Assembly (NCBI GenBank): GCA_038065355.1
Contig: JBBTRC010000010.1
Coordinates: 11,452 to 75,451, forward strand
Length of the DNA stretch: 64,000 bases
Direction of reading: 5' to 3'
Source: Patescibacteria group bacterium
Lineage (GTDB): Bacteria > Patescibacteriota > Minisyncoccia > Phycocordibacterales > UBA918
This document shows, in pieces, positions 3,422-8,472 of this stretch (within the stretch, counting starts at the first letter, position 1; each line of letters starts with the position of its first letter). Below the pieces are notes generated by a model. The model was not told where the DNA came from. It worked only from the letters and a program-made list of their open reading frames with translations, and did not search any database. The position numbers and the translations under genes are program-made.

Positions 3422-3523
3422 GAGATGGCCGAGATGCGAGGCGTGACAAGCTTTTGATTTGAGGTGTACTTGTGTACAGTGAGAAACAAAAGCGCAGTCA
3501 CAACAAAGCAGATTGGCTATATT
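3422..3523 (-). promoter_or_regulatory. conserved structured intergenic element, copy X (atpD-atpC spacer)
   Basis: about 100-nt element paralogous to 8371-8472; conserved flanks and loop CUCACUGUACAyrAAGUAC; stem arms differ but stay complementary (GTGAC..CTTTTG / CAAAAG..GTCAC). Confidence 0.45.
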
Positions 3524-4899
3524 TATGAATTTGTGACCTCGTCTATAGAACCCTTCATGTAGAAGGCTTGTTCCGACTTATCATCATGCTTGCCGTCAAG
3601 AATTTCGCCGAAGCCGCGGATAGTATCTTCAAGCTTCACATACTTGCCCGGCGCGCCGGTAAATACTTCAGCAACCGAGAACGGCTGACTCATAAAGCGT
3701 TGAATTTTGCGGGCACGGTAGACAGTTTGCTTGTCTTCTTCAGACAACTCTTCTATACCAAGAATCGCGATGATGTCTTGGAGGTCCTTGTATCGCTGTA
3801 ACACTTGCTTCACACCCTGTGCGACACGATAGTGCTCTTCGCCCACAATCTGCGGATCAAGCGCAGTTGAATTGCTCTCGAGCGGATCAATCGCCGGATA
3901 AATACCGAGCGAAGCGAGTTGACGCGAGAGCACCACCGTTGAGTCGAGGTGAGAGAAAGTAGTGGCTGGTGCCGGGTCGGTCAGGTCGTCGGCCGGTACG
4001 TACACGGCCTGCACCGAGGTGATCGAGCCGGTTTTGGTCGAGGTGATGCGTTCTTGCATCTTACCCATTTCTTCGGCTAGGGTTGGTTGGTACCCCACCG
4101 CCGAAGATACGCGCCCAAGGAGTGACGATACTTCCTGGCCAGCTTGGGTGAATCGGAACACGTTGTCCATAAAGAACAGTACGTCCTTGCCGCCGCCGGA
4201 ATCTCTAAGCGACTCGGCCATCGTGAGTCCGGTGAGACCGACGCGCGCCCGCGCGCCCGGCACTTCATTCATCTGTCCAAACACGAGCGCTGTCTTGTTG
4301 AGTACGCCCGACTCTTCCATCTCGTGGTAGAGGTCATTCCCTTCGCGCACCCGCTCGCCAACACCAGCAAACACCGAGTAGCCGCCGTGATTAGTCGCCA
4401 CGTTATTGATGAGTTCTTGAATGAGCACGGTCTTCCCCACGCCTGCGCCGCCAAAGAGACCGACCTTGCCACCCTTGATGAAAGGCGCGAGCAAGTCGAC
4501 AGATTTGATTCCTGTTTCAAACACCTCAGTCTTGGTTGACTGGTCCTTGAACGCGGGAGCCGCTTGATGAATGGCCTTGGTGGGCACATCAGAAAGCGGT
4601 GCTTTACCGTCGAGTGTTTTGCCGAGCACATTGAAGAGGCGTCCGAGCGCGATTTCCCCGACTGGAACAGAAATAGCCGCGCCGGTATCGACGACTTTCA
4701 TGGCACGCGTGAGACCTTGCGTGTCCTGCATAGCGATTGCTCGTACGCGATTGAGGCCTGTGTGTTGCGCCACTTCAAGTGTGAGTGTCTCGCCGTCGGC
4801 TTTCTCTATCGTGAGCGCGTTGAGAAGCGCCGGTACTTTGCCCTCAAAATGTACGTCCACGATTGGGCCGATAATTTGCGTAATTGTTCCAGTGTTCAT
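3523..4899 (-). CDS. atpD: F1 ATP synthase beta subunit
   Basis: 458 aa; [10 protein letters not shown]-loop, full AtpD-like sequence. Confidence 0.95.
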
Positions 4900-4967
4900 A
4901 ATGTTTTATAAAAATCTTGAATTTAATAATCTCTTCGACAAAGCCTATGGGGTCGTATCGTAAATTT

Positions 4968-5870
4968 CTATTTCATTGATTCGACACCGGCGGTGATTTC
5001 TGATACTTCGGCAGTAATCGCCGCTTGGCGTTTGTTGTTAAACTTAATTGTGAGTGCTTTCACCATCTCCTTTGACTTATCGGTGGCGTTCTTCATCGCC
5101 ACCATGCGCGCCGAGTGTTCGGATGCCTTGCTCTCAAGGAGCGCGTGGTAGAACATGATTTCTATGAGCTGCGGCACAAGCGTGTTGAGCACTTCTTCTG
5201 GCGAGGGCTCCACTGTGTAGGGCACAAAAGTATCGGGTGCCAGCCGATCTTGACTGAACTTTCCGGTCTTTGGCTTAATTCCTCGCATCACGTCGGCAAT
5301 TTCGCTTGCCGAGACCGGCAACACTTGACGTACGACTGGCACCTGCTCAAAGGTAGATATGAAATTTTGATACAGCACGACTACCTTTTTGTAGCGGCCG
5401 GTCATAAACGCACGGATGGTTTTTTCTGTCAGGTCATAGACATCGCTAAGCGTCACGCCGTCCTTTACGTTGGTGTAGGTGCCAAGTACGGTTTTCTTTG
5501 ATCGCTCGGCAAACTCAACCGCTTTGCGGCCAACGGCTATTACTTCGACCTCCTCAGATTGTGCAAATAGTATCTCTGCCTGCTTGAGTACGGCGCTATT
5601 CACGCTTCCCGCCAGGCCTTTGTCACTCGTGACAACGACCGCCAGCACCGCACCCTCTGTACGCGGGGTGATAAGCGGGTGTGACGTAGTTTTACCATTG
5701 TGAGAAAGCCGAGCCAAAATCCGCAGAGCAGTGTGCACGTACGAGCGACTGGCAAAGGCGCGCTCTTGGCTTTTGCGCATCTTGACCGCCGACACCGACT
5801 CCATCGCCTTGGTGACTTGGCCGGTTTTCTTAGTCGCAATTATTTTATTTTTGATTTGCTTGAGCGCCAC
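4968..5870 (-). CDS. atpG: F1 ATP synthase gamma subunit
   Basis: 300 aa; AtpG-like N/C helices; position between atpA and atpD. Confidence 0.9.
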   Translation of the reverse strand: MALKQIKNKIIATKKTGQVTKAMESVSAVKMRKSQERAFASRSYVHTALRILARLSHNGKTTSHPLITPRTEGAVLAVVVTSDKGLAGSVNSAVLKQAEILFAQSEEVEVIAVGRKAVEFAERSKKTVLGTYTNVKDGVTLSDVYDLTEKTIRAFMTGRYKKVVVLYQNFISTFEQVPVVRQVLPVSASEIADVMRGIKPKTGKFSQDRLAPDTFVPYTVEPSPEEVLNTLVPQLIEIMFYHALLESKASEHSARMVAMKNATDKSKEMVKALTIKFNNKRQAAITAEVSEITAGVESMK

Positions 5871-5876
5871 GGTGAA

Positions 5877-7454: not shown

Positions 7455-7844
7455 TCAACGGGTAATGGACTCGTATAATGATTTTAAAGCTTTCCTATAA
7501 CTATAGTCGTACTCCTCATGGTTGAAAGTGGCCACAAACCCGCCGATGAGTGTTTCATCCACCACGTTTTCAACTGGTGTGTCGGTGGACGCGCCAAGCG
7601 CAGTGAGAGCGGATTTAATTTTTTCGGCCAGCGCTTTTTGCGTGGCAGTCGAAGCTGTCGCAACGACTGCCTGCCGCACACCTTTCTTCGCTTCTAGTAC
7701 GCGCACGACTTCACGCAAAATCGGGACAAACAACTTACCATGATGTCTCCTCGCAAGTGTCGTACGGAGACCAGCGAGCGCCTTTTCGATTGGCAAACCC
7801 TCTTCTAGAAGCTGTAGCAATGCGTGTGTGTACTCCGATTTCAT
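7455..7844 (-). CDS. atpH: F1 ATP synthase delta (OSCP) subunit, short
   Basis: 129 aa helical protein in the canonical position between atpF and atpA; shorter than typical about 180-aa delta. Confidence 0.6.
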   Translation of the reverse strand: MKSEYTHALLQLLEEGLPIEKALAGLRTTLARRHHGKLFVPILREVVRVLEAKKGVRQAVVATASTATQKALAEKIKSALTALGASTDTPVENVVDETLIGGFVATFNHEEYDYSYRKALKSLYESITR

Positions 7845-7847
7845 AGA

Positions 7848-8348
7848 TTATGACGCTCGCTCCTTAAGCACTTTTTCGGCCGCCAATACCGCGAGTCTGG
7901 CGATTTCCGCCTCGCTCTCCTTTCGGGCCATCGCCTTCAACTCCTCGCTCTCGGCCACGGCATTTTTTGCTACCTGCTCGGCTTTCTTTCGCGCATCAAT
8001 CATGATCTCATCGGCTTTTACCGCCGCGTGTTCCTTGGCGCGTACCGCCACGGCCTCGGCTTCTTTGTTGGCCGCCGCAATGATTGACTGCTTTTCGGCG
8101 GCGGCGGCCTCTTTGGCCACTTTCGCCGCTTCAGCGTCTTCTATTCCTTTCGCGATCTTTTCTTCGCGCTCTTTGATCATCGCCAAGACCGGCTTATAAA
8201 GCAGGTACGACAATGCCACCATCAGCAATCCGAAGTTAAAAATTTGAATGACGATGAGACGAAGGTCGATACCAAATGCTTCGATAAGTTGTTCCATGGG
8301 GGAATAATTTTTAGAGGCAGGAGTTTGTAATGTGAGAGGAAGAATCAA
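7848..8348 (-). CDS. atpF: Fo ATP synthase subunit b
   Basis: 166 aa; one N-terminal TM then long Ala/Glu/Lys-rich helix; operon position. Confidence 0.7.
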   Translation of the reverse strand: MILPLTLQTPASKNYSPMEQLIEAFGIDLRLIVIQIFNFGLLMVALSYLLYKPVLAMIKEREEKIAKGIEDAEAAKVAKEAAAAEKQSIIAAANKEAEAVAVRAKEHAAVKADEIMIDARKKAEQVAKNAVAESEELKAMARKESEAEIARLAVLAAEKVLKERAS

Positions 8349-8370
8349 TCTCTACTTTAAAGAATATTTG

Positions 8371-8472
8371 AGATGCCACAGATGCGCGGCGGAGGCGTGA
8401 ACTTTTACGAGTGGTACTTCATGTACAGTGAGTAAAAGTTCACGCCATCCAACAAAGCAGATGCGGCATATT
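8371..8472 (-). promoter_or_regulatory. conserved structured intergenic element, copy Y (atpE-atpF spacer)
   Basis: paralogue of 3422-3523; 15-bp stem GGCGTGAACTTTTAC/GTAAAAGTTCACGCC around conserved loop; starts about 10 nt after atpE stop. Confidence 0.45.

Follow-up and report, generated by a model that had tools for sequence, protein, structure and literature searches.

Two related hairpin elements lie in the minus-strand ATP synthase (atp) operon of a Patescibacteria group bacterium, one behind atpD and one behind atpE, within a 64,000-nucleotide stretch of DNA (contig JBBTRC010000010.1, positions 11,452 to 75,451; hereafter the window). We are highly confident that both are members of a multi-copy family of interrupted hairpins that is specific to the Patescibacteria, or candidate phyla radiation (CPR), and that has a core of ~110 nt and a length of up to ~140 nt when its basal extension is included. 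The family, which is apparently undescribed so far, is a dispersed structured repeat at gene 3′ ends. The two elements had been noticed in an earlier sequence-only reading of the window, which took them for stem-loops that set differential segmental mRNA stability in the atp operon. That observation is confirmed by the present analysis; its atp-specific interpretation is partly supported.

Two copies of the hairpin in the atp operon

The two copies are 77% identical overall, and their location on the minus strand after atpD and atpE and their shared blocks were borne out. The exact blocks ATCTGCTTTGTTG and CTCACTGTACA occur at two sites each and nowhere else in the window, and the copies also have GTAC..GTAC and CGCC(T/G)CGCATCT in common. 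A covariance model built from 13 copies (model R1) places the core of copy 1 at 3414–3522 with a score of 96 bits and that of copy 2 at 8362–8471 with 104 bits; neither this model nor blastn-short detected further copies within the window. As the sequence-only reading had it, the copies begin straight after stop codons (atpD TAA, 3525–3523; atpE TAA, 8485–8483), and folding of both copies upheld its claim that the long central stem differs in sequence between them yet remains paired. Each element is a single long interrupted hairpin, and at its base the pairing continues outward to take in the stop codon and the final codons of the gene it follows. The fold z-scores of the ~110-nt cores were −3.2 and −8.3 for copies 1 and 2, respectively, and those of the extended helices were −4.5 and −10.3 on the sense strand.

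A dispersed family in CPR genomes and metagenomes

When one genome per species was scanned with the pattern CTGCTTTGTTG-N14-24-CTCACYGTACA, we obtained 10 matches, all in metagenome-assembled genomes of CPR bacteria, against a chance expectation that can be put, as a rough estimate, at 1–2. Three of these matches are atp-linked; the rest lie behind rpoC, lepA (twice), ndk, rplW (just before rplB), an M23/LysM peptidase gene and an unannotated gene located upstream of tpiA. A relaxed core pattern recovered 104 metagenome stretches, and a scan of viral contigs with the core pattern gave no matches. Recurrence of the composite core in 10 genomes and 104 metagenome stretches, together with the strong covariation described below, shows independently that the resemblance is more than accidental. 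The search of genome and relatives that the sequence-only reading had proposed thus yields two copies in the window and a motif that is widespread in CPR genomes and metagenomes.

The loci that we compared (designated L with a number) are 1–21-kb stretches around copies. Over all loci collected, model R1 gave 150 matches, and many contigs carried two or three. Three copies are present in the 9 kb of L016, after atpE, atpG and atpD; no model R1 match was found in L004, L006 and L007, which are 21 kb each. Copies also occur in tandem (L040, L081, L052 and L064), as inverted pairs (L014, L049 and L057) and in degenerate form. In L014 (5002–5191) the apical GUAC helix is swapped for a branched insert of ~100 nt, the basal and central parts being intact.

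Searches of the whole window against Rfam 15 at the gathering threshold returned just a tRNA and left the element unmatched. In permissive Rfam scans of copy 2 and five other loci, only miRNA-precursor hairpin noise far below threshold was seen for the element. A weak match to MicX in L013 (2021–2139, downstream of rplB; 30 bits against a gathering threshold of 75) is probably noise. Likeness to SECIS elements, k-turns, hairpin ribozymes and boxA was considered and dropped, as the motif differs from them in geometry and Rfam lends no support. In the literature library that we searched, we found no description of the element among papers on structured RNAs, repeats or terminators of CPR/Patescibacteria, or on the motif itself.

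A covarying fold with conserved internal loops

The secondary structure is strongly supported by covariation, as is expected of a structured cis-regulatory RNA. RNAalifold, run on a plain MAFFT alignment of 13 copies as the sequence-only reading had recommended, predicted 34 pairs, 20 of which show compensatory double changes. In the full set, 31 of the 34 pairs change on both sides. There, 90.8% of cells are paired, compared with 63% after shuffling and 28–43% when partners are slid by 1–3 columns, and the covariation score is 0.64, compared with 0.17 and 0.06–0.11, respectively. The full-set alignment had been fitted to the model, but its outcome is matched by both the slid controls and the plain MAFFT alignment.

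From the base upwards, the layout consists of a basal helix that usually encloses the host stop codon, an internal loop with CUGCUUUGUUG opposite CGCCKCGCAYCU, a helix of ~16 bp of free sequence, a second internal loop with CUCAC opposite RNCUC, and an apical GUAC/GUAC helix. Conservation is confined to the two internal loops and the short apical helix, the central and basal helices being free in sequence. CTGCTTTGTTG is invariant in the 13 copies, but the search pattern demanded it. The GUACA..GUAC palindrome, which the sequence-only reading described as a conserved loop, is indeed conserved; it is really the short apical GUAC/GUAC helix, topped by a variable loop of 4–6 nt.

The hairpin is locked to the stop codons of highly expressed genes

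Almost every copy is on the same strand as the gene upstream and begins only a few nt from that gene's stop codon. In 86 cases, the end of a same-strand open reading frame (ORF) is found no more than 40 nt upstream of the copy; its usual offset from the edge of the model is −6 to +16 nt. The remaining copies are mostly second members of tandem pairs, copies at contig ends and failures of our crude ORF calling. The next gene downstream runs in the same direction in 62 cases and is convergent in 35. Since the downstream gene can have either orientation and the upstream gene is on the same strand, the element belongs to the 3′ end of the upstream gene.

In a test anchored on the outermost basal pair, the coding sequence (CDS) end plus stop codon formed at least 10 of 14 extra Watson–Crick pairs with the 3′ sequence in 49% of copies, as against 0.7% of mismatched-partner controls. 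The distal 3′ arm is therefore a gene-specific inverted copy of the CDS end. This arm co-varies between orthologues: in the window, AATTCATAA of atpD is paired with TCATGAATT, and in L008 GAGTTAAGA is paired with TCTTAACTC. Intrastrand template switching, filtered by selection, may have extended the helix into the end of the CDS.

The host genes, 85 distinct upstream ORFs in our census, are dominated by the highest-expressed genes of bacteria. Copies lie downstream of atpE (nine), rpsL and the M23/LysM peptidase gene (five each), rplN and rplW (four each), rpsG, the EF-Tu gene, atpG and atpD (three each), and groEL, ssb, rpsJ, a sigma-70 gene, gyrA and lepA (two each). The downstream neighbours also include housekeeping genes (S7, L2, EF-P, S10, L7/L12 and DivIC). 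Among the 85 neighbours upstream and the 106 downstream, all taken from the 1–21-kb loci, no family of transposases or recombinases turned up repeatedly. An atp-specific regulator was rejected, the element being found behind many non-atp genes. Two other candidates were also dropped: a readthrough or recoding signal, for which the distance from stop codon to motif is out of frame, and a small ORF, for which the antisense ATG is unconserved and any frame crosses the variable stems.

The hairpin lies within the transcription unit

Strict canonical terminators, often bidirectional, were found 5–50 nt 3′ of 14 of 98 copies, compared with 2.5% of random segments. It follows that the element is transcribed within the mRNA, as part of a 3′ untranslated region or an intercistronic spacer, and is not itself the terminator. 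Over half of the copies are located inside operons, with co-transcribed essential genes on either side, and the others are placed between a stop codon and a terminator. The tails that follow the element are unconserved, A/U-rich and devoid of Shine–Dalgarno sequences. A lineage-specific intrinsic terminator or attenuator might be suspected from a strong hairpin at gene 3′ ends, and the conserved TRIT-type terminators of mycobacteria provide a precedent. This explanation is largely refuted and appears very improbable: the helix lacks a U-tract (a T-run follows it in 11 of 101 copies, compared with 24 of 99 background tails), most copies sit inside operons of co-transcribed essential genes, and where operons do end, the canonical terminators come after the element.

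The family is old and patchily distributed

The median identity between copies is 63%. All pairs with at least 85% identity share flanks and are thus orthologous, a few pairs of 80–84% identity have unrelated flanks, and no near-identical copies were found at different sites, so that recent transposition is unsupported. Among orthologous copies the core is invariant while stems and tails diverge, and compensatory changes are seen between the orthologues of L008 and L016. Site-specific features are also retained, all copies at the atpD site carrying ATAGCCAAT and GTACACCTC. Since old orthologues keep the core despite diverged stems and tails, selection appears to act on every resident copy.

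By its AtpD protein the organism falls among the Patescibacteria/CPR, the nearest named relatives being Candidatus Paceibacterota and Nomurabacteria; L002, L004, L006 and L007 represent the atp operons of relatives with ~88–92% AtpD identity. On the AtpD tree, the window, L008, L104 and L016 carry a copy at the atpD site, and L002, L004, L006, L007 and L047 have none there; at the atpE site a copy is present in the window, L002, L117, L009 and L016 but missing from L004, L006 and L007. The homologue after atpE in L002 is clear, with a stem that is entirely different but still pairs. Where the element is lacking in L004, L006 and L007, the gaps are 4–6 nt between atpD and atpC and 27–44 nt between atpE and atpF. 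Comparison of filled and empty junctions at both sites revealed neither a target-site duplication nor terminal inverted repeats, the insert consisting of the hairpin and an unconserved tail. We read these data as the record of an old family that some copying mechanism once dispersed, whose copies now pass on mostly by vertical inheritance, each with its core under purifying selection, and are sometimes cleanly lost.

Annotation of the window and side observations

The minus-strand operon has the order atpB, atpE, atpF, atpH, atpA, atpG, atpD, atpC, with identities assigned by Pfam. Coordinates of the two copies and of the genes around them are collected in Table 1.

Table 1. The two hairpin copies, their parts and the adjoining atp genes (window coordinates)
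Feature	Position	Strand	Basis
atpB	8874–9704	−	Pfam
atpE (c subunit), host gene of copy 2	8483–8737	−	Pfam
atpF	7848–8297	−	Pfam
atpD (beta subunit), host gene of copy 1	3523–4899	−	Pfam
atpC	3129–3377	−	Pfam
Copy 1, full extended hairpin after atpD; encloses last codons and TAA	3415–3531	−	sequence, folds
Copy 2, full extended hairpin after atpE; encloses TAA	8357–8486	−	sequence, folds
5′ internal-loop motif ATCTGCTTTGTTG, copy 1	3501–3513	−	exact match between copies
5′ internal-loop motif ATCTGCTTTGTTG, copy 2	8450–8462	−	exact match between copies
Shared exact block CTCACTGTACA	3473–3483 (copy 1), 8422–8432 (copy 2)	−	
Apical module, copy 1 (CTCAC-TGTAC-loop-GTACA-CCTC; internal loop and GUAC/GUAC helix)	3455–3483	−	
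Apical module, copy 2 (CTCAC-TGTAC-ATGAA-GTACC-ACTC)	8403–8432	−	
3′ internal-loop motif CGCCTCGCATCT, copy 1	3432–3443	−	
3′ internal-loop motif CGCCGCGCATCT, copy 2	8380–8391	−	
Non-conserved A/U/C-rich tail, serves as atpC leader	3378–3414	−	
Non-conserved tail, serves as atpF leader	8298–8356	−	

The start called for atpF, a TTG at 8348, overlaps the tail of copy 2; the likely start is the ATG at 8297–8295, from which the protein has 149 amino acids, the same as in relatives. No Shine–Dalgarno-like sequence was found before atpF or atpC in the window. The epsilon subunit (3129–3377) has just 82 amino acids and only the N-terminal beta-sandwich domain, and the delta subunit (7455–7844) has just 129 amino acids; both are likewise short in all relatives fetched. 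The atp operon of L002 contains other inserts (8453–8631, 9536–9930 and 11368–11560), with small, hydrophobic-looking ORFs between atpA and atpG and between atpG and atpD, as well as a different long hairpin at ~9790–9930 and a 191-nt spacer between atpD and atpC that is unmatched by model R1.

A second, unrelated repeat family is present in the window in four copies and both orientations (41029–41118, 42452–42552, 49133–49222 and 54408–54508). It has a conserved core of ~90 nt and near-perfect terminal stems of 20–28 bp; three of its copies directly follow stop codons, and the fourth is in a divergent promoter region. This family resembles a young element of the miniature inverted-repeat transposable element (MITE) or REPIN type, unlike the stop-codon hairpins. 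Near tRNA-Lys(UUU) (18874–18947), the 5′ part of the tRNA gene is repeated directly and exactly over 25 nt at 18700–18724, and a further 25-nt repeat pair is found at 18775–18799 and 18857–18881; these repeats may be a remnant of integration (att-like) or of partial tRNA duplication. At four-fold sites of the called genes in the window, C exceeds G on the sense strand (0.35 versus 0.27) and T exceeds A. Given this composition, the weak GC skew of the window tracks gene orientation rather than replication.

Comparison with known elements

The repetitive extragenic palindromic (REP) sequences of Enterobacteria and Pseudomonas, with their BIME and REPIN assemblies, are co-transcribed intergenic palindromes that can shield upstream mRNA from 3′ exonucleases and, when near a stop codon, can affect translation termination. 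REPs are ~35–40 nt and REPINs ~100 nt in length; they occur in hundreds of near-identical copies in both orientations and are linked to the RAYT transposase. Our element shares with them a dispersed occurrence as palindromic repeats at gene 3′ ends and in operons, singly, in tandem or inverted. The stem sequence itself is conserved in REPs, whereas in our element conservation is limited to the loops and the stems vary freely. A conserved GTAG-type stem in high copy number was not found, there being two copies in 64 kb, and the copies are few, old and orientation-locked, with a helix that encloses the stop codon. No RAYT-like gene was seen in the 1–21-kb loci around copies.

The RNase III sites of phage T7 (R0.3–R18.5) are likewise intercistronic hairpins with an internal loop. 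Their cleavage has been shown experimentally, and it leaves a protective 3′ hairpin on the upstream message and gives each cistron its own leader. Like them, our element is a family of hairpins with an internal loop between highly expressed cistrons. The T7 sites are phage-encoded, shorter and without sequence relation to the present element, whose strand asymmetry (see below) is hard to square with a simple duplex of sense RNA.

Integron attC sites are ~60–140 nt long, lie directly 3′ of an ORF in fixed orientation, and are active as a folded strand that is antisense to the ORF. Our element has the same position, fixed orientation and bottom-strand folding, and in both the structure is conserved and the sequence is free apart from short boxes or unpaired bases. 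This resemblance is one of behaviour only. The R″ (RYYYAAC) and R′ (GTTRRRY) boxes are absent, the sole AAC/GTT being in the unpaired CAACAAAG/CTTTGTTG motif opposite CGCCKCG; the full set of R″/L″/L′/R′ boxes is missing and the conserved motifs are much longer. Instead of cassettes next to an intI integrase gene, the copies accompany atp, ribosomal-protein, rpoC, tuf and groEL genes, the order of which is conserved, and no integrase was found among the neighbours of the copies.

MITEs (Correia, RUP, BOX and ERIC), like the second repeat family of the window, are short, non-coding, dispersed hairpin repeats that can be co-transcribed and processed. Their hallmarks are target-site duplications, terminal inverted repeats that are conserved, and large numbers of near-identical copies, none of which is seen here; in place of terminal inverted repeats there are gene-specific basal arms, and median identity between copies is low. 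The mycobacterial MIRU and TRIT elements are also lineage-specific and lie between or after genes in the orientation of the gene. MIRUs are tandem repeats with small overlapping ORFs and TRITs are terminators, and neither encloses a stop codon in a long covarying hairpin. Overall, the element lacks properties that define MITEs, REPs, attC sites and terminators. By analogy it would act most like REPs or the intercistronic hairpins of T7, whereas in its position, its orientation and the strand that folds it has a formal likeness to attC sites. Unusual in the family are the enclosure of the stop codon, the combination of conserved loops with free stems, the restriction to highly expressed genes and a pairing that favours the antisense strand.

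Possible mechanisms and their alternatives

By analogy with known intercistronic hairpins, we tentatively propose a co-transcribed mRNA element that would be recognised by a conserved trans factor and act as punctuation or stabiliser. The data establish family membership, structure, the position rule, the bias in host genes, the co-transcription context, and the age and on-site conservation of the individual copies; that the element acts as RNA, works through a trans factor and serves stabilisation or processing is what we infer. Transcribed as part of the mRNA, the element would expose its invariant internal loops to the trans-acting factor and would block 3′-exonucleases or direct processing, such that the upstream cistron would end in a helix still holding its stop codon. 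The tight translational coupling possible across the 4–6 nt of empty sites would be replaced by an independent, unstructured leader for the next cistron. Survival of a strongly covarying element at housekeeping stop codons in streamlined genomes implies a conserved trans-acting partner and a real function, and of the protein or small-RNA binding site suggested by the sequence-only reading, a site for a conserved trans factor appears a reasonable interpretation of the invariant loops. An apical loop that is A-rich on the sense strand also counts in favour of the proposed mRNA element.

Several observations weigh against it. As a device for subunit stoichiometry, the segmental-stability role that the sequence-only reading assigned to the atp operons, it does not hold up: the same element sits behind many unrelated housekeeping genes, including between ribosomal-protein genes whose products are equimolar. 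It is also dispensable at the same atp sites in close relatives; absence from the atp operons of such relatives had been named at the outset as a finding that would tell against the idea, and L004, L006 and L007 indeed lack the element at both junctions. The most serious difficulty is the strand asymmetry. At consensus pairs, cells reading G.U on the antisense strand outnumber those reading A.C there by 223 to 65, with one near-invariant G.U excluded, and a register-neutral count of the central stem favours the antisense strand by 28 to 8. The minimum free energy is lower on the antisense strand in 96 of 101 distinct copies (means of −40.5 kcal/mol antisense and −31.1 kcal/mol sense; copy 1, −29.8 sense and −50.8 antisense; copy 2, −60.5 sense and −64.1 antisense), and with DNA energy parameters this strand is favoured in 97 of 101. 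Both internal loops are pyrimidine-rich on the sense strand; the antisense strand is purine-rich there and could form tandem G.A and G.U pairs. Background composition fails to account for the asymmetry, and a compositional or mutational cause was rejected, as G and C are about equally frequent between genes and the skew at four-fold sites is not large enough. From a pure stabiliser one would expect tolerance of G.U pairs on the sense strand rather than of A.C mismatches; a cis-regulatory RNA would be expected to show G.U over A.C on the transcribed strand, and here it is the strand other than the mRNA that is favoured. The stabilising or processing 3′ hairpin of the sequence-only reading stands in so far as the element lies inside the transcription unit, with canonical terminators 3′ of many copies, and is called into question by a G.U/A.C asymmetry that favours the opposite strand. 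What holds down confidence in any mechanism is mainly this conflict between sense transcription and antisense folding.

The asymmetry could be explained if the element were a selfish palindromic repeat of the REPIN, MITE or attC type, whose bottom-strand hairpin in single-stranded DNA (ssDNA) would be the substrate of a recombinase or transposase encoded elsewhere, and whose copies would survive only where harmless, after stop codons and in the orientation that spares the host mRNA. Consistent with this are its dispersed, multi-copy nature and lineage-specific abundance (compare L016 with L004, L006 and L007), its patchy presence within the AtpD clade, the tandem arrays, inverted pairs and degenerate copies, a folded strand that is antisense to the ORF as in integron attC bottom strands, the few 80–84% identical pairs with unrelated flanks, and a second, clearly MITE-like family in the same window. 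We nevertheless consider a selfish repeat rather unlikely. Filled and empty sites differ by no target-site duplication or terminal inverted repeat, near-identical copies at different sites are lacking, the core is conserved in old orthologues with diverged stems and tails, no transposase or recombinase recurs among the neighbours in the 1–21-kb loci, and the attC R″/R′ boxes are absent; furthermore, the extreme bias towards high expression and the locking to stop codons go beyond what harmlessness predicts.

Alternatively, the functional fold may be that of the antisense strand itself, as a template-strand ssDNA hairpin (for example one recognised by a protein after replication–transcription conflicts at highly transcribed units) or as a cis-antisense RNA. 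The asymmetry is robust in three independent counts and with DNA parameters as well, at one fixed position an antisense G.U is kept in 95 of 105 copies, A-U and G-C being the only replacements, the antisense internal loops are the purine-rich ones, and the element is linked to highly transcribed genes in an orientation fixed relative to transcription. We regard such a fold as unlikely all the same, since no enrichment of −10/−35 promoter boxes was found on the antisense strand of the tails, the bidirectional terminators 3′ of many copies would block read-in antisense transcription, and no process is known that exposes the template strand as a 110-nt single strand. A more specific proposal, which we think quite improbable, is a host-maintained signal of a previously undescribed kind that would fold on the antisense strand, most plausibly as ssDNA of the transcription template (the leading-strand template), at stop codons of the most-transcribed CPR genes, the mRNA copy being a passenger; its possible role would be that of a protein-recognised site for restart or primosome loading where replication runs into transcription, or for another ssDNA transaction.

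Implications for CPR biology

The CPR/Patescibacteria make up a large share of bacterial diversity and have tiny genomes, and their gene expression is almost unstudied. The element accounts for oversized ‘intergenic gaps’ and for spurious small ORFs annotated in CPR operons. Taken at face value, the strand asymmetry could point to a process at the ssDNA level that is tied to high transcription. The covariance model, with ~130 distinct examples, provides a handle for studying mRNA punctuation and decay in the CPR.

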